64,000 bases of DNA from contig JBAWWL010000009.1 in the NCBI GenBank assembly GCA_037146775.1, forward strand, positions 68,575 through 132,574, given 5' to 3'. Both the position numbers and the translations under genes were made by a program. Below, piece by piece: positions 29,129 to 46,932 of the stretch. The stretch comes from Candidatus Omnitrophota bacterium (GTDB lineage Bacteria > Omnitrophota > Gorgyraeia > Duberdicusellales > 4484-171). Position 1 is the first letter of the stretch; each line of letters begins with the position of its first letter. A model generated the notes under the pieces. The model searched no databases. It saw only the letters and a list, made by a program, of their open reading frames with translations, and had not been told where the DNA came from.

Positions 29129-29137
29129 TGTTTCCTC

Positions 29138-29557
29138 TTAGTTACATTCCCCATGCGGAAGCATGGGGTCTTGCTCCTTTTTCTGATTACGTATATATCG
29201 CCTAACCTTTTCTATTTCTATTTTTTGTACCTGCCGATAGCCGTACCTAGTTGCCCAAAAAGCTTTTCCTTTCTCCACAGGCTTCCGCCTGTGGTATCTG
29301 CATTTCCCTTGCAAACAAAGACCCAAATGTATTTCTCTTGAAGAAACACTTTTTAGAGTTCTCACAACCGCAGATAGTTCTTCTTTAGTATTAACCTCTA
29401 CCAACAAATGCACGTGGTCTTTATTTGTTTCGTACTCTAATACTTTATATTTATGCCTTTGTATGCATTCTGCAAAAATATCCTTAATAGCTCGTTCCAT
29501 CCCATCCTGTAGTATTGGTTTTCTATATTTAGTCACAAACCAAACATGGCAATGCAT
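29138..29557 (-). mobile_element. tnpA: IS200/IS605-family Y1 (HUH) transposase TnpA. It is possibly a domesticated RAYT-like copy; only 9 bp separate it from the RND start.
   Basis: 139 aa. MHCHVWFVTKYRKPIL...DHVHLLVEV carries the HUH motif, with a downstream Tyr. It is flanked on one side by the heptamer array at 29557-29640. No room for a full IS end before the RND start. Confidence 0.8.
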
Positions 29558-29640
29558 CGCTCTGTCCTCTGACCTCTGCCCTCTGTCATCTGCCCTCTGT
29601 CATCTGCCCTCTGTCATCTGTCCTCTGTCTTCCGTCTCTT
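29557..29640. repeat. Heptamer tandem array (TCTGTCCTCTGACCTCTGCCCTCTGTCATCTG...) directly abutting the tnpA start. It also encodes the C-terminal tail of the adaptor protein.
   Basis: Same TCTGNCY family. It translates as ...EETEDRGQMTEGR at the end of ORF 29600..30577. Confidence 0.8.
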
Positions 29641-30508
29641 CCTCAACAACTACTTCCGCTCCCTCGCGTAGACGTTGCTGACCCATAATAACGACAAGAT
29701 CTCCTTCTTGTAACCCCTCGGTTACCTCATAATAGGGACCTTGACGGATACCTAAAGCAATCTTCTTTAATACTGCTTTCTTGTTCTCAATTGTAAACAC
29801 ATACAAATCCGGATATCTGCCTATAATCGCCTCTTTTAAAATAACCAGCGCCTTTTTATGTTCCTGCAAAACCAAGTTAACCCGGGCAAACATTCCTGAC
29901 TGGAGTTTATGCTCATAATTATCCACAGTAATCTCTATCGGCGCAGCACGGGTGCCTAAATCTACAACCGGGCTAATCTTGGTGATTTTTCCGACGAACT
30001 GTTCTGTGGAATATGCATCAACGCTTATGTTTGCACTCTGGCCTAATGAAATCTTGGATAAATATTTTTCAGGAATTTCTACCCCTATCTTTACTCTATC
30101 CATGCTCACCACCAAAGCGATCGCAGTCTGAGTATTCACATTAGTACCTATATCCACATACACTCTGCCTATTCTACCGCTTAAGGTACTTTCTACGGGC
30201 GCTTTCTCAAACTTTAAGCCCACCTCATCGCGATCAATGTAAGCGATTACCTCTCCTTTGTTAATTACGGCACCGTCTTCTTTCAGTTTTTCAATAATTT
30301 TACCGCTTACCTTAGGATAAATAGCGACTTCGTCTTCTGCTTTGATATTACCGACATATTCAAGGATGCTCGCCACATTCTTGAATGTGACTCTATATAC
30401 TTTCACCGGTATCGATTGCAAAGCTTCGTCTTTCTTTGCCCCTTGCGTCGAGCAAGCGCTCATAAACAATATGGCCATAGAAATTATTGCGATATTATTT
30501 TTTTTCAT
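29600..30508 (-). CDS. RND efflux periplasmic adaptor (membrane fusion protein), lipoprotein. The start is taken at MKKNNIAIISMAILFMSAC.
   Basis: Lipobox LFMSAC, a biotinyl/lipoyl-like half-barrel and beta-barrel HlyD-like pattern. Lies between tolC and the RND gene. Confidence 0.8.
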   Translation of the reverse strand: MKKNNIAIISMAILFMSACSTQGAKKDEALQSIPVKVYRVTFKNVASILEYVGNIKAEDEVAIYPKVSGKIIEKLKEDGAVINKGEVIAYIDRDEVGLKFEKAPVESTLSGRIGRVYVDIGTNVNTQTAIALVVSMDRVKIGVEIPEKYLSKISLGQSANISVDAYSTEQFVGKITKISPVVDLGTRAAPIEITVDNYEHKLQSGMFARVNLVLQEHKKALVILKEAIIGRYPDLYVFTIENKKAVLKKIALGIRQGPYYEVTEGLQEGDLVVIMGQQRLREGAEVVVEEETEDRGQMTEGR

Positions 30509-30524
30509 GTTATGTAAAAACATC

Positions 30525-31796
30525 TTACATGCTCCCCTCTGCCTTGTCCAGGCTGCTTTTAGCGATAATATAATCATAAAGCACTTGCTCTCTGTTAAAT
30601 AAAGACACCTTGTATTTAAGATACGCGTCGCTTAGATCAATCACACTGGCTATGCCTTGCTTATATCTCTTTTTCAAAGTATAAAGATTATTCTTATAAA
30701 AATTTGCATCGGACTCCGCAGCTTCTATCCCGCCTACCGCGGTCTTTAAAGCTAAATATGCATTTTTTAACTCTAACGCAATATCTCCGACGGTTCTTTC
30801 GCGTAAAAGCTGAGTCTGTTTTAAATCAACTATTGCCTGCTCTATTTTTGTCTTCGTAGAAAACCCGTCAAAGAGAGGCCAGGTTAAAGTAAAACCATAT
30901 ACATTATAATTCTTCCATTTACTTGAACCGACTGCGGTTGCGGTTACAAAACGGTCGCCACCATAAGAATCCCAGGTCGCATAAATCTCAGGCATATTCC
31001 CGGCTTTAGCTATATTGATTGCTTTTTTGTCTGCTTTTTCCTGCGCCTCATACTGTTTTATTTCCGGCCGCTTAGCCATGGCATTAAGTAATGCCTTATC
31101 ATAAATAACTTCCCGGGGTTCGTAAAAGAACTTTGCTTCGGGTTTTATGCTTACCGAATCTTTCATGAATAATAAATTACGCAGCTGCGCCTCGCTTGTC
31201 TTAGCCTGATTTAAAGAGGCTTCACAGTTTTTTTTAGCACTATCCAAAGAAGCTTTCACATTCAAAAGTTCATTCTCGGAAACTTCGCCTTTTCCGTAAC
31301 GTGCTTCTATCGTCGCATAGTGCTGTTCTGTATTTCTTAAGATTTTTTTATTTAAATCTGCAAAGTAATTTGCCAAAACCAGGGTACAAAATGATTTTTT
31401 GACTTGGAATACTAAGTCCAATTTTGTTTTGTCTCTAAGCGCTACCTCGACATCGCGTTTATATTCATTCTGCTTTATGGTATTAATAATTTTCCCGCTT
31501 TTAAAAATAACTTGTTTGAGGCTTGCATCAATCAAGGTGCTGGTATAAGGCTTATCTCTAAGCTCTTGGGTGGTATCTCGGTCAATAGAAAAATCTAAAG
31601 TAGGCAATATTTCCGTCCACGCTTCTTTAATTTTCCATTTGGCTTTTTCTATTGCTTCAGCGCTCAGCAATATATCACGGTTATCCCTTAAGGCAATCAC
31701 CACTGCCTCATCGAGAGTAAGAGCTACTTCTTTAGCGATAAGCACGGGTAAGAATAAAAAATTAGTGGCCAAGCAAAGTGTAATTATTTTTTTCAT
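30525..31796 (-). CDS. TolC-family outer membrane efflux protein
   Basis: 423 aa with a signal peptide and two TolC repeats of coiled-coil alpha-hairpins. Confidence 0.8.
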   Translation of the reverse strand: MKKIITLCLATNFLFLPVLIAKEVALTLDEAVVIALRDNRDILLSAEAIEKAKWKIKEAWTEILPTLDFSIDRDTTQELRDKPYTSTLIDASLKQVIFKSGKIINTIKQNEYKRDVEVALRDKTKLDLVFQVKKSFCTLVLANYFADLNKKILRNTEQHYATIEARYGKGEVSENELLNVKASLDSAKKNCEASLNQAKTSEAQLRNLLFMKDSVSIKPEAKFFYEPREVIYDKALLNAMAKRPEIKQYEAQEKADKKAINIAKAGNMPEIYATWDSYGGDRFVTATAVGSSKWKNYNVYGFTLTWPLFDGFSTKTKIEQAIVDLKQTQLLRERTVGDIALELKNAYLALKTAVGGIEAAESDANFYKNNLYTLKKRYKQGIASVIDLSDAYLKYKVSLFNREQVLYDYIIAKSSLDKAEGSM

Positions 31797-32251
31797 TTTG
31801 TAACAGGTGGTTCCCCGGTCAAGATATCTTTCATTTGAGTAATAATCCTTAAATAATTATTTCGGTCTTCTTCCGACATTTTTCCGAATACCTTAATCGC
31901 CATTTGCCGCCGGCATTCGCCGATCCTCTTAACAAGCGTATCGCCCTCGGGAGTTAATGTAACATTGATAATCCTGCGATCGCCGGTATCATGCGATCTC
32001 ACCGCATAACCCTCTCTGACCAGCCTATCCACCATACCAGTCATGGCTGCGGTAGTCACGTTCATACAACGAGCTAAGTCAGTCATCTTCGATGAGCCCT
32101 CGCGGTGTAAAGATTCCATGATAAAAAACTGCGGCAGGGTGATATTACCTTTATATAATTCGCCGGTTAAGCGCTTAGCAAATTCCTTCATAATAAGCGG
32201 CATAATCGTATTTAATTTGTCGGCAAAATCGGATAAAGAAATATGTTGCAT
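31793..32251 (-). CDS. MarR-family transcriptional regulator
   Basis: Winged-HTH MarR pattern (LPQFFIMESLHREGSSKMTDLARCMNVTTAAMTGMVDRLVREGYAVR). First gene of the efflux operon. Confidence 0.8.
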   Translation of the reverse strand: MQHISLSDFADKLNTIMPLIMKEFAKRLTGELYKGNITLPQFFIMESLHREGSSKMTDLARCMNVTTAAMTGMVDRLVREGYAVRSHDTGDRRIINVTLTPEGDTLVKRIGECRRQMAIKVFGKMSEEDRNNYLRIITQMKDILTGEPPVTK

Positions 32252-33193: not shown

Positions 33194-33586
33194 CTATTTC
33201 ACTGCATATTTTCCCGCGCCCAACATCATAAGCGCCAAGCAGATGCACGCAATAACAAAAGTATATTCGAAACCTCCTTGCTGGATAAAAAATCCTTTAG
33301 ATAAATGCACGGTGGCTGCGGCTACCATGATAAATACCAATAATAATGCCGCCGCCAGTCTGGTCCAGAAACCAACCAGTAAACACACACCACCGATAAG
33401 TTCGCTGCAGGCCGCAATATAAGCCCACACCAAAGACGGTTTAAAACCAAGGCCTGAGAGCATCTGACTAAAACCATGCAGACCCGGACCGGAAAACAAA
33501 CCAAAACTTGCCTGCAAACCATGCCCGATAAACACAACTGCTAAACATAAACGTAAAACTAAAATAGCTACATCTGTCATATACAC
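33194..33586 (-). CDS. DoxX-family membrane protein
   Basis: MTDVAILVLRLCLAVVFIGHGLQ... matches the DoxX pattern. 130 aa with 4 TM helices. Confidence 0.7.
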   Translation of the reverse strand: MYMTDVAILVLRLCLAVVFIGHGLQASFGLFSGPGLHGFSQMLSGLGFKPSLVWAYIAACSELIGGVCLLVGFWTRLAAALLLVFIMVAAATVHLSKGFFIQQGGFEYTFVIACICLALMMLGAGKYAVK

Positions 33587-33659: not shown

Positions 33660-34784
33660 TCATGAAACTTTTGACAGCATCAAAGCCTTGAGCACGCCCA
33701 CCTTATTCCTCCAGCCATATAAACGATAGATACACATTAAAAAATGTAAAACTATCGCCAACCTCCCCTTCAAATGTATACCCATAACTTGGCCACAGGC
33801 CCTATTATTAGCCATGGGTATAATATAACCAAAATCAAAAGGCTGATACTCCTTAAATTCCAGGCCCTTGATACTGCGGATAACCTGTGCGCCGGCAAAC
33901 AAGCCTTGTGTAATAGCAAACTGTACTGCCATCCGCAAACAAGTATTACCATACGAAAAACAGGCAGCATCTCCGGCCACAAAAATACTCTCATGTGCTT
34001 TAAGCGACATATCAACTTTTAATCTACCCTGCGGATTCTTCCCTAAAGAAAGCTTCTGGATAAAATCAGCGCAACGCACGCCGGCCGTCCAGATAAGCAT
34101 ACTGTTATTATAGTTCGAAGAATCAGAAAACCGCAGGCTTCTTTCCTCTATTCTTTCGACAACCACGCCGGTAGCAACTTCGATATCCAGCATCCTAAGA
34201 TTATCCGAAACATAAGCTTTCATCCAATCCGGCAGTGGACCTAAAATTGAAACTGCGCGTTCAGCAATAATGATTCTACCCTTTTTTCCGTGGCGGTTAA
34301 GGTAACAACGCAGGCCACAAGCTACTTCTATGCCGCTATAGCCGGCGCCGGCTACAATAAAATTCTCGTATTGGTTCCGGCCTAATGCAGCGGTTATTTT
34401 CACCGCATCTTGCGCACTATCCAACGTGTATCCGTACTTTTTTACGGCATCGTTGCCGTAACTGTTTGTTTCGGTGCCGCTGGCAAGAATCAGATAATCA
34501 TACGGGAATACTGCGTCAGAGGTAATAACTTCTTTCTTTTCTGGATCCAAAGCAATAACTTCTTTATTGAAAAAACGAGCGCCGTATTTCAAAGCAATCG
34601 GCCCAAGCTCACAGGTTATAAAACGCGGGCTGATATTTCTGGCAAAACAATCAGGAAGTAACGGCAGAAAATCAAAGGTTTCTTTTTTGTCGATAAGAAG
34701 AATATCCAGAGGAACTTTTGCGCTTGCCAGCCGAACGAGTGCGGCTATGCCAGAAAATCCCGCGCCAACTATTATAATTCTCAT
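33660..34784 (-). CDS. NAD(P)/FAD-dependent oxidoreductase (type II NADH dehydrogenase / pyridine nucleotide-disulfide oxidoreductase-like)
   Basis: N-terminal IIVGAGFSG Rossmann motif and a second NAD-binding motif FIVAGAGYSGIE. 374 aa. Confidence 0.7.
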   Translation of the reverse strand: MRIIIVGAGFSGIAALVRLASAKVPLDILLIDKKETFDFLPLLPDCFARNISPRFITCELGPIALKYGARFFNKEVIALDPEKKEVITSDAVFPYDYLILASGTETNSYGNDAVKKYGYTLDSAQDAVKITAALGRNQYENFIVAGAGYSGIEVACGLRCYLNRHGKKGRIIIAERAVSILGPLPDWMKAYVSDNLRMLDIEVATGVVVERIEERSLRFSDSSNYNNSMLIWTAGVRCADFIQKLSLGKNPQGRLKVDMSLKAHESIFVAGDAACFSYGNTCLRMAVQFAITQGLFAGAQVIRSIKGLEFKEYQPFDFGYIIPMANNRACGQVMGIHLKGRLAIVLHFLMCIYRLYGWRNKVGVLKALMLSKVS

Positions 34785-35695
34785 CGTATAAAAATGGCAG
34801 CAATCATTATTACGCTTACCATTACCTGTATACAGATGGTAAGTTTCGAAGAAAGCATAAGTTTAGTTTTATCAAGATAGTGGTGTTTCAAAATACCTAT
34901 CGCTTTTACGGCAGGAAATATCCCCAGTAAAGAACATAGCGCAAACGGACTGACGTATCGGCGCTGGACCAGAACCACTATTGAAATAAATCCAGCCACG
35001 ACCAGCAGACGATAGAAAACATAAGCACGATCCAGGCCAAGAATACTTACCCAATTCATTTTTTTTGCCCTTACGTCGTCGCTATAATCAGGAATTTCGT
35101 TGGCAAAAAGAATCGCGGTAGTAAAAATACCGAAAGGAACAGACAAAAGAAAACTCTTCATGTCCGGGAATAGTTTTGTTTGGATAAAATAGCCGCCCAT
35201 GACTAACGCCGGGCCGAAGGTAAGAAAAATAATAAACTCACCACACCTACGGTAAGAAAACTGCAAAGGCTTATGTGAATATGACCAGCCCAACAAAAGT
35301 ATCACCAGATAATATCCGACAACACTTGAAGCCTTAAGCGTTATACTTAAACCAAGAACGCAAAAACCGGCCGCAAGGGCGGTGAACGCGGCTAAACGCT
35401 TAAAAAATAACTCGGAAAATACTTTTTCCTGAATAAGCTTGGAGCCGCCAAAAAATTTATAGAAATTTTTATCCTGCCAGTCCGCGCCGCTTTTTGAATC
35501 CGCGTAATCATTCATCAAATTAGCGCTCAAATGCGTGGCGATTACTGCCCCCAACCCAAATAAAAATGTTATTATATGAAAATTTTCTCTTACATACAAA
35601 GAACCAAAGATAAATGGTAATACACTTGCGCTTAAAAACGGCAGGCGCAAGGCGCGGGAAAGGTTCTTTATTGTAATTTTTTTATTTGCAGCCAT
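34781..35695 (-). CDS. UbiA-family prenyltransferase (candidate lycopene elongase-like or MenA-like)
   Basis: Polytopic membrane protein with an NDYADSKSGAD aspartate-rich motif. It is adjacent to carotenoid genes. Confidence 0.7.
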   Translation of the reverse strand: MAANKKITIKNLSRALRLPFLSASVLPFIFGSLYVRENFHIITFLFGLGAVIATHLSANLMNDYADSKSGADWQDKNFYKFFGGSKLIQEKVFSELFFKRLAAFTALAAGFCVLGLSITLKASSVVGYYLVILLLGWSYSHKPLQFSYRRCGEFIIFLTFGPALVMGGYFIQTKLFPDMKSFLLSVPFGIFTTAILFANEIPDYSDDVRAKKMNWVSILGLDRAYVFYRLLVVAGFISIVVLVQRRYVSPFALCSLLGIFPAVKAIGILKHHYLDKTKLMLSSKLTICIQVMVSVIMIAAIFIR

Positions 35696-35720
35696 ACCAG
35701 CTTCATGTTAACATAAAGCC

Positions 35721-36761
35721 ATGTTTTTGGAAATAAAAAAAAGGATAGAAGCGGAACTGGACAAATATATCCACGAAGCCAATGAACTATACCGCCTAAA
35801 AAAGATATCCCCCCTGCTTTTTAACGCTATAAAAGAGTTTATTTCCCGGGAAGGCAAACGCGTGCGGCCCATTCTTTTTGTAGTAAGCTACCTCGGTTTT
35901 GCGAAAAAAACCGCTCCCGGACTATACCGCAGCGCGCTCTCTCTGGAGCTCTTACACGATTTCATGCTCGTTCACGATGATATCATTGATAAGTCAGAGA
36001 CCCGCAGAGGGAAACCTTCAATGCACGCACTTTTAAACACTTATCTTAGCGAACATACACACGTAAAATTTAGCGGTCAAGACCTGACTATCGTGGTAGG
36101 AGACGTAATGTATGCCATGGCTATTCACTCCTTTTTAGCGATCCGGGAAAAATTAGAGCGTAAAGAACGCGCACTACAGAAACTCGTTGATGCGGCTATG
36201 TATACCGGGAGCGGAGAATTTATTGAGCTTTTAGCCGGCCTGAATCGGATTGACGCCATTAAAAAACAAGATATCTATAAAATCTATGACTTTAAAACTG
36301 CCTGCTATACCTTCGCCACCCCTCTTTCCATGGGAGCGATACTTGCCGGAGCGCGAGACGAGGAAGTAAAAAAACTCTTTGCTTGCGGCATATATTTAGG
36401 GAGAGCTTTCCAAATCAAAGACGATATTCTCGGTATGTTCGGTGACGAGAAAAAAATCGGAAAATCAACTACTACCGATTTACAGGAGGCGAAAAAAACG
36501 ATCCTTATCTGGTATGCCTACCATCATGCTTCTTCCAATGACAAAAAAGTAATCGAATCTCTGCTGGAAAAAGAAATGATAAACACCCAAGATATAGAAA
36601 CTATGCGTGCCATCGTGACCCAATCAGGAGCGCTTATCTTCGCAGAAAAAGAGATAGCAGCTTTGGTACAAAAAGTAAAAACTTTAAGCGCAGCCTCCAG
36701 GATGCAATCGTCATATCAAGAAGCGCTCACCGCTTATTTCAAGAAACTACTCGCCATATAA
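35721..36761 (+). CDS. crtE: Polyprenyl (geranylgeranyl) diphosphate synthase
   Basis: First aspartate-rich motif is LVHDDIID. Second is FQIKDDILG. Confidence 0.8.
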   Translation: MFLEIKKRIEAELDKYIHEANELYRLKKISPLLFNAIKEFISREGKRVRPILFVVSYLGFAKKTAPGLYRSALSLELLHDFMLVHDDIIDKSETRRGKPSMHALLNTYLSEHTHVKFSGQDLTIVVGDVMYAMAIHSFLAIREKLERKERALQKLVDAAMYTGSGEFIELLAGLNRIDAIKKQDIYKIYDFKTACYTFATPLSMGAILAGARDEEVKKLFACGIYLGRAFQIKDDILGMFGDEKKIGKSTTTDLQEAKKTILIWYAYHHASSNDKKVIESLLEKEMINTQDIETMRAIVTQSGALIFAEKEIAALVQKVKTLSAASRMQSSYQEALTAYFKKLLAI

Positions 36762-36765
36762 TCCT

Positions 36766-37641
36766 TCAGTCAGCGGCACAAACAAATTTACAAGTATTAC
36801 TTTTAATATCCAAAACGAGCTCATTCTGAGGGTCAATCGCTAAGGCTTTGCCCAGATATTGCTCATACTGGGCACTATCGCCCTTCCTTTGATATACTTG
36901 AGCCAGGCGCACATAAATATCCACAAAGCCGGGATCGGCATGGAGAGCTTTTTCTAAATAAACTTGCGCTTTTTGCAGATTTCCTCCGGCAAGCGAAGGC
37001 GCCAGAAGATAGAAACTGCCAAGTCCAAATAATACCGCCGCCGCATCCGGCTGCAGGCTTTCGGCCTTCTTTAAAGTTGACAAAACCGACGTGCCGTTAA
37101 TAAGTTTGGAAAGCGGTCCGCCATAATGCGCGATCATTCCTTTTGATCCGGCCGTTAAAAGATACGCCCGGACATAGTTACTTAAATCAACATTATCTTT
37201 ACCCTGCCTTATAACCTCACTCGCCAACGACACCGCCCGCTCAAACTCCATCTTGTTATATTTGATATATCCTAAACTGATATGCGCGGGAGCAAAACGC
37301 GGATGGGAAACAACCACTGCTTCTAGCATAGTTTCAGCGTCATGTACGTTGTGCTTACGCCGATATACCTCCGCCAGGCCCCATTGCGCTTCAACGACCT
37401 CGGGAGAAAGCTTGGCTATCTTAACAAAAGCACTCTCTGCCTCGTTATCTTGGTGCACATTCAAATAAACTAAGGCCAATACATATAGATCGTTTACGGA
37501 ATCCGGGCTCTTCTCGACTGCCGAGACTGCCTGGCTGATATCAATCTTATCAGCAGCCTCGTGTAAATTCTTCCAATCCAGGCCATAGCCGCTGGGCAAA
37601 ACACCAAGAAGCATAAGAAAGAATATTATTATGTGTTTCAT
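36766..37641 (-). CDS. Secreted TPR-repeat protein
   Basis: Signal peptide MKHIIIFFLMLLGVLPSG and multiple TPR-like helical repeats. Confidence 0.55.
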   Translation of the reverse strand: MKHIIIFFLMLLGVLPSGYGLDWKNLHEAADKIDISQAVSAVEKSPDSVNDLYVLALVYLNVHQDNEAESAFVKIAKLSPEVVEAQWGLAEVYRRKHNVHDAETMLEAVVVSHPRFAPAHISLGYIKYNKMEFERAVSLASEVIRQGKDNVDLSNYVRAYLLTAGSKGMIAHYGGPLSKLINGTSVLSTLKKAESLQPDAAAVLFGLGSFYLLAPSLAGGNLQKAQVYLEKALHADPGFVDIYVRLAQVYQRKGDSAQYEQYLGKALAIDPQNELVLDIKSNTCKFVCAAD

Positions 37642-37931
37642 GATTGCCTCCGCTTACCACGCTCCCACAAAACAATACTTACGGTCACCATACTAAAACC
37701 AAAAAGAAAATCCTCAAAAGGTATAGTAAAAATCCTATAGCCTAAAAAAAATTGCGGGTTATAAAGTACCACCTGCCGGGTAAGATAACCATTCACAAGC
37801 AGTTTGAAACAAAGAATTATGAACAAAAAAACACAGAACTCTTTTCTGCACAATAGGCGTGTGCCGCTCATCCTATCAAAAAGCACTGCCGCCAAAACCG
37901 ACGCGACCGAAAGTATGGTATATTCTTTCAT
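37638..37931 (-). CDS. Lycopene cyclase-domain small membrane protein (CrtYc/Yd-, CrtYe/Yf-type subunit). The start is taken at MKEYTIL.
   Basis: About 97 aa with 3 TM helices and the PFEDFLFGF motif typical of heterodimeric lycopene cyclase domain proteins. Confidence 0.55.
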   Translation of the reverse strand: MKEYTILSVASVLAAVLFDRMSGTRLLCRKEFCVFLFIILCFKLLVNGYLTRQVVLYNPQFFLGYRIFTIPFEDFLFGFSMVTVSIVLWERGKRRQS

Positions 37932-38236
37932 CGAATTCTTCCCCGGATATAGTTTACTATTTCCCAGGTAAAAATGCAGCAAAACGGTATGACAACAAAA
38001 AATAATATTTCTTCAATGGGCAGATTAATGATCCGTGCCGGCCACACACTGTGTGGATCAAATGACCAGTGTCCGCGATAAGTAGCAATCACATCCCAGC
38101 CGCCGAAAATAAACACAACCAGCGCTATAACCTTGAAAAGATTTAAACGGTTACGCCAAAAATGAAGCCCTGGCCAGAAACTGGCCAGTAAAGGAATGAT
38201 ACCGCTGGCTAGAAGCGCAAAAAAATATTTCGACAT
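37928..38236 (-). CDS. Lycopene cyclase-domain small membrane protein (second subunit)
   Basis: 102 aa with 3 TM helices and the PIEEILFFVVIPF motif. Confidence 0.6.
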   Translation of the reverse strand: MSKYFFALLASGIIPLLASFWPGLHFWRNRLNLFKVIALVVFIFGGWDVIATYRGHWSFDPHSVWPARIINLPIEEILFFVVIPFCCIFTWEIVNYIRGRIR

Positions 38237-38264
38237 AGCTTTATTGTAGCGTTAGGGAAGCGAT

Positions 38265-39185
38265 TTGCAACCATCAATTACATCTTGGTTTTATGGTAAA
38301 TCCGGTGTAAAATGTTTTATGCACACCAAATACAAAAGCATAAAAAAAGGTTTTCTGCAAGCCAGAGCAATCACCAAAAAGCACGCAAAGACGTTTTATT
38401 TCGCCTCTTTATTTTTATCCAAAAAAAAACAATCCGCAGCATACGCGGTCTATGCCATATGTAGAATCAGCGACGAATCCGTAGACAACACCAGGCAATC
38501 CGGGCAAGATACAGCGCTTACGCGCATCAAAGAAAATATCGCAGCCGCCTATGCAAGTAATCCGCTCCAAGACGATTTGCTTAAAGCCTTTCGAAAAACA
38601 GTCAAAACATACCGCATTCCCAAACACTATTTTGATGAACTCATCGAAGGAATGGATATGGACACCCGCGTCAGCCGTTACGAAACCTTCCAGGAATTAT
38701 ACCGCTATTGCTATAAAGTCGCCGGCGTAGTCGGCCTGATTATGCTCAAAATTTTCGGCTACCAAAACCCGCAAGCCGAGGCTTACGCCGTTGATTTAGG
38801 GGTGGCTATGCAGCTTACCAATATTATCCGGGATATCGCTGAAGATTTCGAAAAAGGAAGGATTTATCTACCGGCTCATGACCTGCGTCAATTCGGTGTC
38901 TCGGAAAAAATGATAACCCAGGGAATTGTTGACGATAAATTCATAGCGCTCTTAAAATATCAGATTGAACGGGCCAGACACTACTACAAAACAGCCTCAA
39001 AAGGCATACCGCTCATCAGCGACAGAAACTGCCGCTTTGTAACTTTGGCAATGCAAGAGCTGTACTCAGGGATATTAGCTGCCGTAGAAAGGAATAACTA
39101 CGATGTTTTTTCGCAGCGTGCCCAGGTAAGCACCATAAAAAAAATTCTTACCGCCTCAAAAATCGCCTTACGCCAAGAATACTAA
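38265..39185 (+). CDS. crtB: Phytoene synthase (squalene/phytoene synthase family). The start may be the Met at about 38319.
   Basis: YAVYAICRISDESVD (first Asp-rich region) and YCYKVAGVVGLIM...DLGVAMQLTNIIRDIAED (second Asp-rich region). Confidence 0.8.
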   Translation: MQPSITSWFYGKSGVKCFMHTKYKSIKKGFLQARAITKKHAKTFYFASLFLSKKKQSAAYAVYAICRISDESVDNTRQSGQDTALTRIKENIAAAYASNPLQDDLLKAFRKTVKTYRIPKHYFDELIEGMDMDTRVSRYETFQELYRYCYKVAGVVGLIMLKIFGYQNPQAEAYAVDLGVAMQLTNIIRDIAEDFEKGRIYLPAHDLRQFGVSEKMITQGIVDDKFIALLKYQIERARHYYKTASKGIPLISDRNCRFVTLAMQELYSGILAAVERNNYDVFSQRAQVSTIKKILTASKIALRQEY

Positions 39186-40651
39186 AAGCCTCTTTCAATT
39201 AAATCAGCGGTTATCCGGGAACTGGCGATTACTACCGGTAATCCTCCTCCCGGTTGAACGCTCGCGCCTACGTAATGAAGATTTTTTATGCGCTGGTCGA
39301 AATTTGCCGGCCTAAAAAAAGCGCTCTGGGTAAGATTATGCGCCAGACCAAAGGTGGCGCCATATTTTATATTATAGCGGTCTAAAAAATCGCGAGGGTA
39401 AAAATGACGCTCCACCTCAATTAAATCTTCTAGATTGCTGCCAATAATTTTGCTAACTTTTTCAAAAATGGTCTTACGAAGCGCTTCTTCGGACGCCTCT
39501 ATATCGCTTTTAGCTTTCTTTAAATTAGGGACTGGAACTAAAATATATAAGATATCTTTACCTTGCGGGGCAAGAGACGAATCGGTCACCGTGGGTACAT
39601 GTATATAAAACGAGGGGTCATAAGGAACGTTTCCGGTTTTAAATATTTGGTCAAGATTAGCAACCAGATCTTTTGCGAAAAATAGATTGTGATGTTCCAA
39701 ACCTTTTACTTTCCGCTTCAGGCCAAGATAAATAAGATACACCGAGCAAGAATAACGGTAGGATTTAAGATTTCGCGATAAAAGACTTTCTTGTGCGTAA
39801 GCGTAGTCGGCATTTATCGCCACACTATCAAAGGATACATCTAAGCCGTTTGCGTTTATGGCAAGCGTACTTTTTTCCGGACGGATATTTTTTATTTCAC
39901 AGTTATAATGAAATTTAGCGCCGAAACGCTTAGCTAAGGCCTCAAGAGCGCGAGGGATTTCATACATACCGCCAAGGGGGTGGTAGATTTTTTGCACATG
40001 GTCAGTATAGGAAATAATACTGTAAAACGCCGGTGCCTCAAAAGGCGAGACGCCCATGAACATCGCTTCAAAAGTAAAAGCGTAACAAAGCTTTTCGTTA
40101 GGAAAGAATTCTTTTACCATATTCCAATAAGACTGAAACGGCCTTATATCTTTAAGCAATGGCCAGAGTAGCGGGTTAAAACAAGCCGAAGGCGTAAAAC
40201 AGCGATACAACAGGGGCCTCACCTTTTCGTATAATACCGTGGTAGCTTTTATGAATTTATCGAAACCTGCACTGCTACCTTTCTGAAGGCGCTCAATCTC
40301 TTCCCGGGTACGCACAGGATCACGGTACACCGTAAAGGTGTCGGAATCCGGATAAAAGAGTTTATAACTTACCTCTAACACTTTCAGACTAAGATGATCC
40401 TCCAGGCGTTCGTTGCAATAGGAAAAAACCTCTCCAAAGAAATCCGGCATAAGCACAAACGAAGGCCCCGTATCAAATTTAAAACCACCTTCGGTAATGA
40501 GATTATTGCGTCCACCGCAAGAAGGTAGCTTTTCAAAGACTTCTACCGGATAACCCTTATGAGCCAACCGGCTCGCTAAAGCTAATCCGCCCACACCACC
40601 GCCAACAATCGCAATCTTTTTTTTCATAAAATACCTTTGGTTTTCTCCCAA
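39182..40651 (-). CDS. crtI: Phytoene desaturase (CrtI family)
   Basis: N-terminal KIAIVGGGVGGLALASRLA FAD-binding motif and the CrtI-type C-terminus GASVQPGGGLPVV. Confidence 0.85.
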   Translation of the reverse strand: MGENQRYFMKKKIAIVGGGVGGLALASRLAHKGYPVEVFEKLPSCGGRNNLITEGGFKFDTGPSFVLMPDFFGEVFSYCNERLEDHLSLKVLEVSYKLFYPDSDTFTVYRDPVRTREEIERLQKGSSAGFDKFIKATTVLYEKVRPLLYRCFTPSACFNPLLWPLLKDIRPFQSYWNMVKEFFPNEKLCYAFTFEAMFMGVSPFEAPAFYSIISYTDHVQKIYHPLGGMYEIPRALEALAKRFGAKFHYNCEIKNIRPEKSTLAINANGLDVSFDSVAINADYAYAQESLLSRNLKSYRYSCSVYLIYLGLKRKVKGLEHHNLFFAKDLVANLDQIFKTGNVPYDPSFYIHVPTVTDSSLAPQGKDILYILVPVPNLKKAKSDIEASEEALRKTIFEKVSKIIGSNLEDLIEVERHFYPRDFLDRYNIKYGATFGLAHNLTQSAFFRPANFDQRIKNLHYVGASVQPGGGLPVVIASSRITADLIERGF

Positions 40652-41067
40652 GATTCTCTTGGCCCGGCTACCTCCAAAAACAACGGGTGGACACTTGTCC
40701 GTTTCGCCTTGATAAGTTCTTTATTCTTATTCTTATCTCTTATTTTTAGCTTTCTTGAAAGATGCGCACATTCAAAACAAATTTGTCCGCGCGAAACTTT
40801 TATTGGTTTGACCCGCCTAGAGAAACTTACGATTTTTTCCTTTCGAAAATCATACCCCCTCCTCCTGCTTTCTTTATAGATATGAGCGAGATAAAATCCT
40901 ATAGCGGAAACCGGATCGGGATGTTTTTTGAAACGCTCAAGCTGGGAATGATGGGTATAACCTTTTGTTTTCTTAAGCAGAACTTTCTGAGCAAGTAATG
41001 CTTCTCTCCAAAGAGCGAGAAGACCTTGACAGTCGAGATGGCGCGGGTGGATACTCCATAGCCGCAT
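40624..41067 (-). CDS. Pyrimidine-dimer DNA glycosylase (T4 endonuclease V / DenV-like)
   Basis: MRLWSIHPRHLDCQGLLALWREALLAQKVL...GYTHHSQLERF matches the Pyr_excise family N-terminus. Confidence 0.7.
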   Translation of the reverse strand: MRLWSIHPRHLDCQGLLALWREALLAQKVLLKKTKGYTHHSQLERFKKHPDPVSAIGFYLAHIYKESRRRGYDFRKEKIVSFSRRVKPIKVSRGQICFECAHLSRKLKIRDKNKNKELIKAKRTSVHPLFLEVAGPRESWEKTKGIL

Positions 41068-41205: not shown

Positions 41206-41679
41206 CTAAAATTTATTCATGCTTACTTCAAATTGCCTTTCTCCATCGCTCAAAATAACCTTATCGGGTCTTATCTCAACTATTAAGTTTCCTTTGACTT
41301 TCTCTCCGACACTTAGGATCTCTCCGTTAATTACTGCTTTTGGATTTTTAGTATCCCAAATGATACCCGAAAGATTAATACTGGAATCCTCTTTTGCGGT
41401 GTTTGCTATTTGACTGCGCGTAAAGGGGTCTCTCCCTAACTTCAATCGATCCGATTCATTCTCAAGCCTATGATACAAAGATCCACCGCCCATGCCGCCG
41501 CCAGCAGAATCGTTTTGGACGGAAGGCAAAACCGCAGCGGAAGACGATTGCGCAATAAAGTTTTTCTGTTTCTTGCCGGCTTTTATGGCATTGACTACGG
41601 CAAATATTAAAATTATCACTAACAATATTACTACGCCAATTTTTATTTTATCCTGCGGCCCTAATTTCATTTCTAACAT
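41206..41679 (-). CDS. pilP: Type IV pilus assembly protein PilP-like
   Basis: N-terminal TM followed by a C-terminal beta domain (AVINGEILSVGEKVKGNLIVEIRPDKVILSDGERQFEV). Lies downstream of pilO. Confidence 0.55.
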   Translation of the reverse strand: MLEMKLGPQDKIKIGVVILLVIILIFAVVNAIKAGKKQKNFIAQSSSAAVLPSVQNDSAGGGMGGGSLYHRLENESDRLKLGRDPFTRSQIANTAKEDSSINLSGIIWDTKNPKAVINGEILSVGEKVKGNLIVEIRPDKVILSDGERQFEVSMNKF

Positions 41680-41697
41680 ATCCGCTTGGCTCCTTAG

Positions 41698-42273
41698 TTA
41701 TGCTACTAAATATACATTAATTTCTATATAAATATCCAGTTTATTATCATTTTCCTGTTTCTTTTCTATCTGCAGTTTTTCTACGGTGATAAATGCTGAT
41801 AGAGACTTTTTTAAGGCCTCCATGTAACAAACGAAATCATAATAGCCACAACGCATTTTTATAGAAATTGGCATTTTGTAGCAAATTTTTCCTTCTATCT
41901 GCTGCGGGATATTGTTGTCATCCACAAAAGCCACCTTACGGCGCGGCTCCATGGAATTAATATCGACTTTCATGTCTCTCGCAATGTCTATAATCAATTT
42001 CAAGGTTTCTTCCTCTGTGGCGGGAAAATATCCGTTAAGTGTATTATACCGTCCTCTTAAAAACTCTATCCCCTCTTCAACAGTTTTACCATTTTTAGTA
42101 ATTGTTTCGACTTCCTGTTTTTGCGCCTCAATCTCTGCCAGCTGTACTTTAAGGGATTTTAGTGTTGCCTGTGTGGGTAAATATATGAATATCAAAAAAA
42201 TAAAAATAGTAAATATCCCCACACCTACAATAATCAGTATTTTTTTCTGAGAAATAGTCATATTCTGTACCAT
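41698..42273 (-). CDS. pilO: Type IV pilus assembly protein PilO-like
   Basis: 191 aa with an N-terminal TM, a coiled coil and a C-terminal alpha/beta domain. Follows pilMN. Confidence 0.6.
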   Translation of the reverse strand: MVQNMTISQKKILIIVGVGIFTIFIFLIFIYLPTQATLKSLKVQLAEIEAQKQEVETITKNGKTVEEGIEFLRGRYNTLNGYFPATEEETLKLIIDIARDMKVDINSMEPRRKVAFVDDNNIPQQIEGKICYKMPISIKMRCGYYDFVCYMEALKKSLSAFITVEKLQIEKKQENDNKLDIYIEINVYLVA

Positions 42274-42281
42274 TATATTAC

Positions 42282-43976
42282 TTATTTTTTAGGCGTTTCC
42301 AGCCGCATGTCGCATTGTATCTCAAACTGCTGCACATTATTAGCATGCCTGGACGAAACCAAGTTCGCCTCCAGGATATAAGATGTTTTCTCAAGTTGCC
42401 CCATAAAACCGGTCAAAACATCTTCTATGGGCGTGCCTTCTTCTAAAATAATACCTTTTAAGGTCAGAAATTGTTTTTGCCGGTCAAAAAACAACCCGTC
42501 TAAAACCATTTCTTTCGGTATTAAGCTGCTTATAAGTTTTAGCAGTCCATACACAGGAGCCCTATCCCGTTGTATAGCAACCAAAAGTTTTTCTCTTACT
42601 TCTATCTTAGTATTTAAATCTTTAATTAATTCTATGATACTCAGTTGCAGCTTGGCATTAGCTACGCGTTTCTTATAGTCATTCACATGAAAGTTAGCAA
42701 TGAAAAGCAAGAATAAAAATACTGCCACAGAGGTAACGGCTATAATCCGAAAAAATGCTTTTTGTCTTACTTCTGTTTTTTGTGCCTTAATTTCATAAGG
42801 CACTAAGTTTATATAATCTTGCTTCATAAATGCAGCGCCCAAGGCACTGCTAAACTGGTTTAAATTTTTAAAAAAGTTTTCCTTATCTTTTTCCTGAATG
42901 ACAATGCACTCCGGCAAAGGCAGCGGTTCAATCCTGACATTAAGTTCACCGGCCAAATACGTGCTGAGGTTTCTCAGATTAGCGCCGCCGCCAGTGACGT
43001 AAAGCAAAGAAGGCTGGTCTTCTTTAGAATTAGCGGCAAAATAGTTAAGAGAAAGTCTTAACTCTTTTACTAAATTTTCTAACTGCGGCCGCATTAAAGA
43101 CAAAATGTAAATCGCCGGAATATTATCCTTCAATACCTCCGAATTATCCTGAGGAATCCCAAATTCTTTTTTTATCTCTTCTGCTTTTTCCAAAGAAAGT
43201 TCAATTTTGCCTTTATCCGACATAAGGGCGCCTGTCAACGATTGAGTAACCTTATCGGAAGAAAACGACAGGGTTCTCATAAAGCAGGGCTTATTGTCGC
43301 GGAAAACGCAAAGAGTTGATTCATTATAACCGATATCCAACACAGCAAATATATGCGCATTATCACTGCTGCAGTTTAGTATCTGGGTATAATTGATCAG
43401 GGGTACTGAAATTTTGGTGACAGAAAGGCCACAGCCGATGACAATAGCTAAATACTTATCAACAAACTCACGCTTGGCGAAAACACACACCACATCGCTT
43501 TTCTTTACGCCATTGGCATCTGTGTATTCGCGCAACACCCTGGTATCCATCAGGGCCTTTTCTATATCAAACTGCACATCATCCTTTAACTGCCATTTTA
43601 CCGCTTGCGGGATTTCTTTTTCAGGGATAGAGGAAAGAGTTATTAGCTTAATCACGAGGGAATCAGGACTGGATACAGTTAAAATAGCTTCTTTGGTAGA
43701 TACGTCATTCCTACGTAGAAAATCGCTGATAAAACTTTTTATTTCCGTCAATCCTTCCTGTCCGGATAATACCTTTTTTAAATCATAGGACAAAAGCACA
43801 GGGATCGCGCCTTTGTATCCAATATAAACGATTTTTACAAAAGACTCGCCCCAATCAATAGAAATAAGCTTTTTTTTGTGTGTGGCAAAATCAAGTTTAC
43901 CTAAACCGGAAAAAATAGCCTTAGAATTTGATGTCTTTTGAGGTAATCCCTTGATTTTTCCGCTAAATAATTTCAT
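42282..43976 (-). CDS. pilMN: PilM-PilN fusion protein (actin-like ATPase-fold PilM fused to TM/coiled-coil PilN)
   Basis: The N-terminal roughly 380 aa are PilM-like (LISIDWGESFVKIV, TGGGANL). A TM helix (FFRIIAVTSVAVFLFLLFIANF) and a PilN-like C-terminal region follow. Confidence 0.7.
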   Translation of the reverse strand: MKLFSGKIKGLPQKTSNSKAIFSGLGKLDFATHKKKLISIDWGESFVKIVYIGYKGAIPVLLSYDLKKVLSGQEGLTEIKSFISDFLRRNDVSTKEAILTVSSPDSLVIKLITLSSIPEKEIPQAVKWQLKDDVQFDIEKALMDTRVLREYTDANGVKKSDVVCVFAKREFVDKYLAIVIGCGLSVTKISVPLINYTQILNCSSDNAHIFAVLDIGYNESTLCVFRDNKPCFMRTLSFSSDKVTQSLTGALMSDKGKIELSLEKAEEIKKEFGIPQDNSEVLKDNIPAIYILSLMRPQLENLVKELRLSLNYFAANSKEDQPSLLYVTGGGANLRNLSTYLAGELNVRIEPLPLPECIVIQEKDKENFFKNLNQFSSALGAAFMKQDYINLVPYEIKAQKTEVRQKAFFRIIAVTSVAVFLFLLFIANFHVNDYKKRVANAKLQLSIIELIKDLNTKIEVREKLLVAIQRDRAPVYGLLKLISSLIPKEMVLDGLFFDRQKQFLTLKGIILEEGTPIEDVLTGFMGQLEKTSYILEANLVSSRHANNVQQFEIQCDMRLETPKK

Positions 43977-43998
43977 ATTAAAAAAAATTACACCGATT

Positions 43999-44075
43999 AA
44001 CTAATCCCTGTCTACCGGCCCTCGTCTTCCCGTCTCGCCTTCGGCTCGCCGAGGCGGACGCCGCGAGGTGAGCAA
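43999..44075. repeat. GC-rich hairpin repeat (CCGGCCCTCG[T/G]CTTCCCGTCTCGCCTTCGGCTCGCCGAGGCGGACGCCGCGAGG[T/C]GAG). The second copy is at 46325..46400.
   Basis: The two copies are nearly identical over about 70 bp and contain nested inverted repeats CTCGCC...GGCGAG. Confidence 0.8.
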
Positions 44076-44099
44076 ACAGATGTATAATCATCTATTTAA

Positions 44100-44327
44100 T
44101 TAACCGTGTGTCTTAAATAAATAATAGGAGACGAACAAACACAAAGCAGAAGCCAGCAGAAGTGAAATGCCTACCCCTATTTTTAAATTATAAATCTTTT
44201 CTTCCGTTGTTACAAGCACTTTATTGGTTACCGCTTCAAGTTTGCGCAATCTTTGCGGCAAAAACAAAAGCAAAATACCAAAAATGAACGCAACCGTTCC
44301 CGCACAGATTAAAAATAACATATACAC
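44100..44327 (-). CDS. Small membrane protein
   Basis: 75 aa with two TM helices, lying inside the pilus cluster. Confidence 0.35.
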   Translation of the reverse strand: MYMLFLICAGTVAFIFGILLLFLPQRLRKLEAVTNKVLVTTEEKIYNLKIGVGISLLLASALCLFVSYYLFKTHG

Positions 44328-44329
44328 CT

Positions 44330-44425
44330 CCTTACTTTAGAATGATTACGCAGATTCTTAAAAAAGATTACACAGATTAATTAATCAGTGTAATCTATAT
44401 TTTAATCGGTGTAATCATTATAAGC
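44330..44425. promoter_or_regulatory. Cluster of GATTACACAGAT-type motifs (4 copies, both orientations)
   Basis: GATTACGCAGATT, AGATTACACAGATT, AATCAGTGTAATC and AATCGGTGTAATCATT lie between the PilX-like gene and the small membrane gene. Confidence 0.6.
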
Positions 44426-44437
44426 TTTACAGGATGT

Positions 44438-45673
44438 CTAGTATATCTCCTTCCAATCACTTGGCACATAAGCGCCCGGAACAAATGACGGTAAGCTGGC
44501 CAGTGACGACAATGCGTCGTCATGATGTATTGCTGACCCACCCCACATATTCATTGTATCACCGATAAATGAACCAAAGAGCCCTCCCTGGCCATGAAAA
44601 GTAAGGGCCCCGTTTGGAGCATAGACAGCTGCGTACATATCAGATTGCGAAGTAATAGCTATTGACTGCGACGTACCATTAGAACCATACATCTGAAAAT
44701 TGGAAGGTAAATAAGTAAGATTATTTATATCTCCTTTGATGTCTAGATTTCCAGCAAAATATACCACCACCGGCCCAGTGCTTGCGCTGGACACAACGAT
44801 AGCCCCGCCGCTTTTGACATCCATGGATGTGCTACCTGTAATATATATATTTGCCGGACCGGTTATTGTTATGGTATCCTTATTTTTAGGGGTGAATGCC
44901 GTATATTTATGATCACCAGTTATGGGGGTTGCCGTACTACTTATCGTACCTTCACCGGCAAGGCCTGTGAGTGAAGTTGGCACCACAACCGGCGGCAAAG
45001 TTACATTAGCATCATGAGCTATGCTCCCGGAAACAGCCGCAGCATTATTAAAAGTTCCTGATGGCCCGGTGGTAGCATTCCCGCCTATAGTAGCAGTGCC
45101 GCCAACAGTTATATCCGCATTCGTACCCACATCCCCGTGCAGACCAATATTTCCATCTACATTATATCTACCGATACTGGAATCATAGCTATCTGTAGCA
45201 GAATTGCCAGTCAAACCCGCTCCAATACTACTTCCTCCACCTGAACCGCCGCTGAATGATGCGTAGTTACCGAATAAGCTAGACTTCGTAACTTTAACAT
45301 ATACAACTCGTTTCGCTTGTTGCGTAGCTGTGCGCGAAGGAATATAGCCAATAGCAGTAATTTCCGGCGTAGTACCCGTGGGGCTGGCCATAGAGACATC
45401 ATAATCACCGTAGCCAGAAAGAGTTGCCTGTATTGTTTTGGGGTCGGTTCCGGACCAACCAGTCCAATCGGATTTGCTTAAAGCCAAAAGCCCCTTTTGG
45501 ATACCGGATTCAGCAAGATAAAAAGCCTGCTGGGACTGCATATAGTTTACGGAATTCATGGTGTTAGTACCTAAAAGAGAAACAATCGTTGCCGCCATAA
45601 CCGCGACTAAAAGCATAATCACCAAAGCAGCGATAATACTCACTCCTTTTTTGTTAGCCGCACAACGCATCAT
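44438..45673 (-). CDS. PilX-like pilus assembly/tip protein with a large Gly/Thr/Ser-rich C-terminal domain
   Basis: The N-terminal KKGVSIIAALVIMLLVAVMAATIV...NYMQSQQAFYLAESGIQ matches PilX_N (N-terminal helix plus the QQAF...AE motif). The C-terminal roughly 280 aa are GT-rich and repetitive (adhesin-like). Confidence 0.6.
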   Translation of the reverse strand: MMRCAANKKGVSIIAALVIMLLVAVMAATIVSLLGTNTMNSVNYMQSQQAFYLAESGIQKGLLALSKSDWTGWSGTDPKTIQATLSGYGDYDVSMASPTGTTPEITAIGYIPSRTATQQAKRVVYVKVTKSSLFGNYASFSGGSGGGSSIGAGLTGNSATDSYDSSIGRYNVDGNIGLHGDVGTNADITVGGTATIGGNATTGPSGTFNNAAAVSGSIAHDANVTLPPVVVPTSLTGLAGEGTISSTATPITGDHKYTAFTPKNKDTITITGPANIYITGSTSMDVKSGGAIVVSSASTGPVVVYFAGNLDIKGDINNLTYLPSNFQMYGSNGTSQSIAITSQSDMYAAVYAPNGALTFHGQGGLFGSFIGDTMNMWGGSAIHHDDALSSLASLPSFVPGAYVPSDWKEIY

Positions 45674-46191
45674 TGTAACCTCCTTGGGCTGACACCGCTT
45701 TTAAGAGCTAGCTGCGTTCCGCCAAGAGAAAAAGTTAAATCAATCACAACCCTTTTTATATCAGTATCGCTAGGGTTAACCTGGGGCGTAGCTATTTGTG
45801 CGCCCGCGCTGTTGTAATAGGTAAAAGATAAAGAACTTACATTATCTGCCAATTGATTAGAAGTAGCCCCTATAGTGCGCATAAGATGGCCTGAGGAAAG
45901 GTTAAAGGTGATATCGTTATCATTAATATCGATAAAACGAAAAGTAGAGCCACTAGCGGTTATAACGCTTGCCTTGCTTTTTATCTGACGCATCTCGCGG
46001 ATCATCTTATCCATGGCAAGGTTTGCACTTTCCGACATAGTGTTGCGGTCTACGGCAAGCCGCCAACCGTCAACAACAGCAAACATAAGCGGCGCAGTGA
46101 CGGCAAAAGTAATACCTAAAAGCACGACAACGATAATAATTTCTAATAATGTAAACCCAGGTATTAATGGAAAATGCTTTTTCCCGCTCAT
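45670..46191 (-). CDS. Minor pilin / pseudopilin (PilW/GspJ-like) with a prepilin N-terminus
   Basis: PGFTLLEIIIVVVLLGI prepilin cleavage/methylation motif. Confidence 0.65.
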   Translation of the reverse strand: MSGKKHFPLIPGFTLLEIIIVVVLLGITFAVTAPLMFAVVDGWRLAVDRNTMSESANLAMDKMIREMRQIKSKASVITASGSTFRFIDINDNDITFNLSSGHLMRTIGATSNQLADNVSSLSFTYYNSAGAQIATPQVNPSDTDIKRVVIDLTFSLGGTQLALKSGVSPRRLQ

Positions 46192-46244
46192 TGATAATTA
46201 GTTGACAAGTATTGTAACATCGTTGACTTTAAATTAGAAATTAT

Positions 46245-46445: not shown

Positions 46446-46497
46446 TTTCGAGTTCAATGTTCAATAAATCTTTTTCGGGTAAACGATGCCTTGACGT

Positions 46498-46848: not shown

Positions 46849-46866
46849 TTTAATAAAAGATTGCAC

Positions 46867-46932
46867 CGATTTTACGAAAGATTACACAGATTTCTAAACC
46901 AAAAACAATCTGTGCAATCTGTGATATACAGA
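46867..46932. promoter_or_regulatory. GATTACACAGAT-type motif cluster (3-4 copies)
   Basis: GATTGCACCGATT, AGATTACACAGATT and AATCTGTGCAATCTGTGATATACAGATTA. Confidence 0.6.

Follow-up and report, generated by a model that had tools for sequence, protein, structure and literature searches.

A locus of ten open reading frames (ORFs) lies at 33.2-41.1 kb of a 64,000-nucleotide stretch of DNA (the window) from a Candidatus Omnitrophota bacterium (assembly GCA_037146775.1, contig JBAWWL010000009.1, positions 68,575 to 132,574 of the forward strand), and contains genes for carotenoid synthesis together with a gene that codes for a prenyltransferase of the UbiA superfamily. Scans with Pfam and NCBIfam models, together with a comparison of related loci, make it likely that two units meet here: a cluster for a cyclic C40 carotenoid and, beside it, a phylum-wide module composed of a MenA-like prenyltransferase, a flavoprotein and a DoxX protein, whose product would be a prenylated quinone, with one polyprenyl synthase common to both. 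The carotenoid cluster is of a known C40 type with an ordinary gene set. An earlier note on this DNA had described the same genes as a C50 pathway of the decaprenoxanthin, sarcinaxanthin or bacterioruberin type, in which the UbiA protein would act as a lycopene elongase (CrtEb/LyeJ type). This pathway is not borne out, because the UbiA protein is MenA-like and the two modules are independent of each other. Judging from its sequence, the UbiA protein is not a lycopene elongase; it belongs to a distinct subfamily within the MenA/UBIAD1 branch, from whose other members it has diverged. The genes of the locus, with the models that they match, are the following:

33194-33586, minus strand: DoxX-family membrane protein (PF07681, 74 bits)
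33660-34784, minus strand: flavoprotein of 374 amino acids resembling NAD(P)H:quinone oxidoreductases of the NDH-2/FSP1 type (Pyr_redox_2, 107 bits)
34781-35695, minus strand: MenA-like UbiA-superfamily prenyltransferase (PF01040, 71.4 bits; gathering cut-off 34.2)
35721-36761, plus strand: short-chain polyprenyl diphosphate synthase, probably a geranylgeranyl diphosphate (GGPP) synthase in the CrtE role (PF00348, 185 bits)
36766-37641, minus strand: secreted tetratricopeptide repeat (TPR) protein with TAtT-like repeats (TPR_19, 64 bits; TAtT, 34 bits with a cut-off of 26.5; N-terminal signal-like sequence)
37638-37931, minus strand: lycopene-cyclase-domain peptide B (CycB), 97 amino acids from the ATG at 37931, the ORF opening at 37982 (TIGR03462, 51.9 bits)
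37928-38236, minus strand: lycopene-cyclase-domain peptide A (CycA), 102 amino acids (TIGR03462, 65.3 bits)
38319-39185, plus strand: SQS_PSY enzyme of the phytoene synthase type (CrtB role), 288 amino acids from the ATG at 38319, the ORF opening at 38265 (PF00494, 272 bits)
39182-40627, minus strand: CrtI-family carotenoid desaturase, 481 amino acids from the ATG at 40627, the ORF opening at 40651 (TIGR02734, 412 bits; cut-off 238.1)
40624-41067, minus strand: DenV-type pyrimidine-dimer DNA glycosylase (PF03013, 77 bits)

All the genes named in the earlier note are present where it had put them and on the same strand, each passing its domain model, although the TPR gene, which was said to flank the cluster, sits inside it (36766-37641). 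The genes called on a second, independent assembly of this organism concur, including the 97-residue peptide B, and a protein identical to the window UbiA has been recorded from a Candidatus Omnitrophota metagenome-assembled genome. The gene order of the locus is seen again in dozens of Omnitrophota loci, so that the juxtaposition is not a chance event confined to this genome.

The affinity of the window UbiA protein to MenA was found with every kind of comparison. Among the NCBIfam models only MenA models matched it, nine in number, the best with 99.7 bits and all of them below their cut-offs, and the three models that are matched by the reference elongases (NF009516, NF009608 and NF010119) gave no match even at E<=10. 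Conversely, LyeJ from Halarchaeum reaches 397 bits on NF009516, 103 bits on NF009608 and 130 bits on NF010119, and at most 16.5 bits on MenA models, and the elongase domain from Arthrobacter reaches 134, 469 and 150 bits on these three models and matches no MenA model. MenA models were the best match of 31 out of 31 sampled Omnitrophota members of the UbiA family, six of which also matched NF009516 weakly (best E-value 2e-9). A hidden Markov model of the Omnitrophota family gave 78-92 bits to three MenA proteins, 14-16 bits to LyeJ, 1.4 bits to CrtEb and 4 bits to UbiA from E. coli.

In BLASTP comparisons the window UbiA scored 59-61 bits over about 250 residues with MenA and 24.6 bits with LyeJ; bona fide MenA proteins score 86-161 bits with each other, so that its divergence would only slightly exceed that of the most distant MenA pairs. 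In the phylogeny that the earlier note had called for (neighbour-joining, 200 bootstraps), MenA and the Omnitrophota UbiA proteins form one clade with 100% support, and LyeJ and CrtEb form a separate one, also with 100% support. The proposed identity as an elongase is thereby lost and, since this protein is not of the CrtEb/LyeJ type, the C50 signature fails. UBIAD1 is the top match of the protein in the PDB by sequence and also by fold (using a predicted model with a pLDDT of 88.8), and a tblastn search with it returned MenA genes only. It shares with MenA and UBIAD1 the fold, collinearity over the whole length and a conserved Y(S/T)xxP...G(E/D) block, and its motif 1 (NxxNDYADxxxGxD) has the MenA-like form (NxxNDYxDxxxGxD). 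This MenA-like Omnitrophota subfamily may be a new variant.

The elongases used as references were identified by synteny and recovered from plasmid records that were reached via CrtI matches. A Halarchaeum plasmid carries crtB, a crtI-family gene, the prenyltransferase gene and cruF (crtD-PT-cruF synteny), and a second LyeJ example comes from Halocatena; the crtD-lyeJ-cruF arrangement is known in haloarchaea (PMC8305020). The 1-Mb plasmid NZ_AP024649.1 of Arthrobacter sp. StoSoilB13, which has no features in its gene table there, contains a complete C50-type operon (L085:2361-7720). This operon is composed of co-directional crtE, crtB, crtI and cyclase-subunit genes followed by a gene for a 399-residue fusion of a cyclase subunit with the elongase (the NF009608 match of 469 bits). 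A literature search gave no usable phylogeny of elongases and MenA and no published elongase sequences, and a tblastn search with a window cyclase peptide against plasmids gave nothing useful. Actinobacterial C50 clusters and the window locus have the same list of domain families within a few kilobases, and the window UbiA, which belongs to the same superfamily as LyeJ and CrtEb, is likewise found near crtB, crtI and cyclase-domain genes. However, the Arthrobacter reference is a single co-directional operon with a fusion of elongase and cyclase subunit, and the reference elongases in general are encoded directly within the crt operon, beside cruF or in this fused form, whereas the window UbiA gene has an operon apart from the crt genes, and its inheritance does not depend on theirs.

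The operon structure was read from three overlaps of 4 nucleotides with the sequence ATGA: between the stop codon of the UbiA gene and the start codon of the flavoprotein gene (34781-34784), between the stop of CycA and the start of CycB (37928-37931, read directly in the sequence) and between the stop of CycB and the start of the TPR gene (37638-37641). These overlaps indicate two separate operons, one with UbiA and the flavoprotein (then DoxX) and another with CycA, CycB and the TPR protein. The picture of one cluster given in the earlier note thus holds for the gene content but not for transcription, since UbiA shares its transcript with the flavoprotein and DoxX and not with the cyclases. 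The polyprenyl synthase gene sits between the two units on the opposite strand, and the UbiA gene, which is beside this GGPP-synthase-like gene, is within 3 kb of the cyclase pair. At the other end, the stop codon of the DenV gene abuts the start of crtI. Promoter and terminator scans gave counts that were not above the shuffled background.

Linkage was followed in two sets of loci. For the set anchored on UbiA, one genome per species was scanned, which yielded at least 185 relatives, nearly all from Omnitrophota, and 80 loci were kept; the set anchored on CrtI drew on 80 metagenome loci and three more obtained by protein look-ups, of which 77 remained once duplicates had been removed. Neighbours were counted among the loci with enough flank, and de novo clustering served as an independent check of the UbiA set. 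Around UbiA, the NDH-2-like flavoprotein is encoded directly downstream in 58/63 loci and DoxX about 2 kb downstream in 49/63, the polyprenyl synthase is adjacent in 64/70 and the TPR protein is present in 39/70. The carotenoid genes are less frequent: CrtB in 19/70, CrtI in 11/51 (at least 6.5 kb of upstream flank being required) and the cyclase pair in 15/70 (about 21%), so that 55 of the 70 loci have UbiA without cyclases. Around CrtI, CrtB was found in 59/61 loci, CycA in 51/53, CycB in 42/45, the TPR protein in 38/43, the polyprenyl synthase in 33/39 and IspH in 59/67. In these 59 of 67 related loci (L093-L175) ispH, also called LytB, lies between crtI and crtB (for example, L093:11443-12288); in the window no ispH is found at this position and crtB and crtI converge directly.

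The presence of UbiA could be judged in 28 CrtI-anchored loci that contain both cyclases and synthase, with 1.3 kb or more of sequence past the synthase gene: 14 of them have UbiA and the other 14 lack it. In nine of these 14 UbiA-less loci the flavoprotein-DoxX pair follows directly after the synthase, with no room for a further gene, and one Omnitrophota lineage has a complete crt block with flavoprotein and DoxX and no UbiA gene separating the synthase from the flavoprotein (L093, L125, L135, L136, L141, L147, L149, L157 and L167). The UbiA-less crt loci comprise a main lineage and three isolated cases, which implies at least four losses of UbiA, with the cyclases conserved afterwards. The crt-positive loci are dispersed over the tree of UbiA proteins, where their sisters are often crt-negative loci situated on very long contigs, so that there is no crt-specific subtype of UbiA. 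This dissociation in both directions fits independent modules and not an elongase that feeds dedicated C50 cyclases.

The carotenoid cluster itself is genuine, and the split cyclase of the heterodimer type that had been described in it stood up: both small ORFs, linked to CrtB and CrtI, exceed the cut-off of TIGR03462 (65.3 bits for peptide A and 51.9 for peptide B, with a cut-off of 39.4), which was the check suggested for them, and also that of PF18916 (39.1 and 51.9 bits, respectively, with a cut-off of 27). Their motifs are LPIEEILFF in peptide A and IPFEDFLF in peptide B. Heterodimeric lycopene beta-cyclases (CrtYc/CrtYd) and fused cyclases of the CrtYcd type are present in Brevibacterium, Myxococcus, Thermus, Bacteroidota and Archaea. 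Like these proteins, the window pair is composed of peptides of about 100 residues encoded by tandem coupled genes, in each of which a single TIGR03462 domain and a PxE(E/D) motif are found, and unlike CrtYc/CrtYd the Omnitrophota pair forms a clade of its own, with no close relative outside and with a TPR gene attached (in the 38 of 43 CrtI-anchored loci mentioned above). A word-based search in a collection of 5.8 billion proteins retrieved about 100 cyclase clusters, all of the Omnitrophota type, and a cyclase profile run against 1.84 billion representatives found as next relatives two-domain fused cyclases of about 225-235 residues, with about 100-110 bits. The names of the clusters holding more distant relatives were uninformative. 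With the Omnitrophota cyclase profile, the C50 cyclase subunits from Arthrobacter reach 24 and 7 bits, and by these scores the pair looks like lycopene cyclases and not like the sampled actinobacterial C50 cyclase pair.

The SQS_PSY enzyme passes its domain model (272 bits with a cut-off of 26) and does not reach the CrtB equivalog models (249 bits with a cut-off of 550 for cyanobacterial CrtB; 186 with 500 and 154 with 480 for others). It is also below the cut-off of HpnD (246 vs 279). The desaturase passes the subfamily model TIGR02734 and no equivalog model (366 vs 640 for CrtID), and its family in Omnitrophota comprises at least 120 protein clusters at 61% identity or more. Squalene genes of the HpnCDE type were considered and rejected, as only one SQS_PSY gene is present and the HpnE model gives the desaturase 41 bits.

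The polyprenyl synthase scores 148 bits on the GGPP synthase equivalog models (cut-off 500). Its nearest solved relatives are farnesyl diphosphate (FPP) and GGPP synthases, the best of them being named an FPP synthase. All of the 73 members of the family examined have DDxxD as their first Asp-rich motif, with no insertion, a Phe at position -5 and a non-aromatic residue at -4; according to the chain-length rules of prenyl synthases, this combination is the signature of type-I GGPP synthases. The protein thus probably makes GGPP, in the role of CrtE, and would be the hinge common to both modules.

The top solved relatives of the flavoprotein are NDH-2 from Caldalkalibacillus (4nwz, 3e-22), YjlD from B. 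subtilis, NDH-2 from S. aureus and FSP1 (AIFM2). It aligns with NDH-2 and FSP1 from end to end, and its gene is coupled to the MenA-like gene; it differs from them in being shorter (374 residues), and its homologues also occur without UbiA. An NDH-2-type protein, NdbB/NDC1, is required in phylloquinone synthesis after the MenA step, and DoxX proteins are generally linked with quinones.

The analysis thus shows the domain identities, the family to which UbiA belongs, the coupling of genes in the operons and the separate gain and loss of the two modules. The following scheme goes further, as the length of the prenyl chain, the final carotenoid, the acceptor for the quinone and a functional link between UbiA and the flavoprotein are inferred. 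In the first module, the synthase would provide GGPP, two molecules of which would be joined by the SQS_PSY enzyme to give phytoene, and the CrtI-family flavoprotein would convert phytoene into lycopene or a polyene close to it. CycA and CycB, as a membrane heterodimer of the CrtYc/CrtYd type, would then cyclise the psi-ends, producing gamma- or beta-carotene. The secreted TPR protein is co-transcribed with the cyclases; one possibility is that it handles carotenoids or lipids in the periplasm. In the second module, UbiA would most likely transfer a short prenyl chain, made by the same synthase, to an aromatic head group, which is probably a naphthoquinone-type one. This would yield a membrane quinone for reduction by the coupled NDH-2/FSP1-type flavoprotein, with DoxX as the third member. 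Carotenoids of C45 or C50 are not expected, since UbiA in this scheme leaves lycopene unextended.

Several observations weigh against the assignment of the locus to C40 carotenoids and a MenA-like quinone module. The scores of the window UbiA are far under the cut-offs of MenA (99.7 vs 264 bits for the best model; 60.7 vs 102.15 for TIGR00751). It differs from MenA in a five-residue insertion after motif 1, and in an altered motif 2, which reads NE(I/V)PDxxDD in the family and NN(I/L)RDxxxD in MenA, with Pro in place of Arg; E200, P202, D203 and D207 of this motif are invariant in the Omnitrophota family. Because of the scores below the cut-offs and of this invariant Pro, the acceptor of the window UbiA may not be 1,4-dihydroxy-2-naphthoate (DHNA). 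The neighbours of UbiA are a further difference: they encode a short-chain synthase, an NDH-2-like flavoprotein and DoxX, and no men, mqn, ubiE or menG gene was found in the 64-kb window or linked in the related loci. In the first module, the desaturase scores higher with CrtN from Staphylococcus and Microvirga (308 bits) than with CrtI from Pantoea (243 bits), and the SQS_PSY enzyme scores higher with CrtM from Staphylococcus (143 bits) than with CrtB from Pantoea (127 bits), although this may reflect a deep ancestry shared with the C30 branch and not C30 chemistry. Finally, linkage was judged at loci, so that crt genes may lie elsewhere in genomes whose UbiA locus is without them, as UbiA may in genomes whose crt locus is without it, and the reference elongases comprise one actinobacterial C50 cluster, two syntenic LyeJ orthologues and one Haloferax paralogue.

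These observations bear on three other explanations. One is that the locus encodes a C50 pathway after all, the MenA-like UbiA being a convergent, non-canonical lycopene elongase and the small peptides C50 cyclases, which we consider very improbable. The proximity of UbiA to the cyclase pair and to the synthase gene agrees with it, as does the occurrence of the full gene set in 15/70 UbiA-anchored and 14/28 CrtI-anchored loci, and scores below every MenA cut-off together with the altered motif 2 leave the substrate formally open. However, UbiA falls outside the LyeJ/CrtEb clade and matches none of the three elongase models; its gene does not share an operon with the cyclases but is coupled to that of a flavoprotein of the quinone reductase type, and is kept in most crt-less loci, as the cyclases are in loci that lack UbiA. 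Moreover, UbiA proteins of loci with and without crt genes are mixed in the tree, and it is to fused lycopene cyclases, far more than to the C50 cyclase sampled, that the window cyclases are close. Another explanation is a C30 (diapocarotenoid) pathway, with a CrtM-like synthase acting on FPP and a CrtN-like desaturase. The scores with CrtM and CrtN described above would be in its favour, although the differences are small, and so would the name of the top solved relative of the polyprenyl synthase, but this synthase has a GGPP-synthase-type signature and no tailoring genes of the CrtP, CrtQ or CrtO type were found among the window ORFs or the gene calls of the independent assembly. The cyclase-domain peptides are, in addition, conserved in the crt loci (CycA in 51/53 and CycB in 42/45), and the end groups of 4,4'-diapocarotenoids lack the carbons needed for an ionone ring. 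Since ionone-ring cyclases would have no substrate in 4,4'-diapocarotenoids, a C30 pathway is a minor rival, and an unlikely one.

The third explanation leaves the carotenoid cluster as it is and denies the second module a role in quinones: UbiA would prenylate a lipid or phenolic acceptor, and the flavoprotein and DoxX would be mere respiratory or redox neighbours. It would be consistent with the nine loci in which the flavoprotein-DoxX pair occurs without UbiA, with a motif 2 unlike that of MenA and with the fact that no genes for head-group biosynthesis or methyltransferases are linked in the related loci. The main genomic survey of Omnitrophota, in which quinone pathways (complete men, mqn and ubi) are patchy, also agrees with it (PMC10066038). 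On the other hand, every affinity to curated models and structures is to MenA and UBIAD1, the divergence from MenA (59-61 bits) is little beyond the lower end of that among bona fide MenA proteins (86-161 bits), and the genes of UbiA and the flavoprotein overlap by 4 nucleotides and are adjacent in 58/63 loci. We regard this explanation as doubtful, if somewhat less so than C30 carotenoids, and a C40 carotenoid cluster beside a module for a prenylated quinone is the one that we prefer.

Other features of the locus and of its surroundings are described here for completeness. The TPR gene, which is coupled to that of the second cyclase peptide, has been retained at many loci after the loss of their crt genes (the 39 of 70 given above). 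DenV is encoded near the locus in 3/83 UbiA-anchored loci and in a few CrtI-anchored ones, in a variable position, upstream of crtI or beyond DoxX (L004, L047, L080, L096, L106, L112, L136 and L147). The photoprotection theme suggested by the earlier note is thus weak, and a photoprotection island was rejected because DenV is seldom linked to the locus. Directly beyond DenV there is a cluster resembling those for type IV pili or type II secretion (41206-51709), which includes PilB-like (T2SSE) and PilC-like (T2SSF) proteins and ORFs with prepilin-type N-termini. On the other side of the locus, 25835-32251 encodes an AcrB-family RND transporter (839 bits), followed by a putative periplasmic adaptor, a putative outer-membrane factor and what looks like a MarR-type regulator. 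Four co-directional genes at 19524-24276 encode two ATP-grasp proteins similar to D-Ala-D-Ala ligases, a PIG-L-family deacetylase and a radical SAM protein similar to lysine-2,3-aminomutase, and this group may constitute a pathway for a small molecule or a beta-amino-acid conjugate. An ORF of 1063 amino acids at 13476-16667 has no Pfam match at E<=1e-5.

The claim of a C50 pathway far from Actinobacteria and haloarchaea is set aside by this analysis, which spares expression work aimed at the wrong product. What takes its place is a widespread and conserved cluster (crtI, usually ispH, crtB, the split cyclase, the TPR gene and the GGPP-synthase-like gene) in the uncultivated and mostly ultra-small Omnitrophota. 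Carotenoids are nowhere mentioned in the main genomic survey of the phylum (PMC10066038), and a literature search on carotenoids and quinones in Omnitrophota returned general statements only and no paper on carotenoid genes. The MenA-like subfamily with its NDH-2-type reductase, found in at least 185 species-level genomes, bears on the question of which quinone, if any, Omnitrophota use. As a speculation, to which we give only a low probability, the unit composed of the synthase, UbiA, the NDH-2/FSP1-like flavoprotein and DoxX could make and recycle a short-chain quinone (C20, similar to menaquinone-4) whose head group is taken up from a host or the surroundings. If this were true, the unit would be a bacterial counterpart of the vitamin K system of animals formed by UBIAD1 and FSP1, and it would explain the source of membrane quinone in nanobacteria with reduced genomes and a patchy distribution of men, mqn and ubi.

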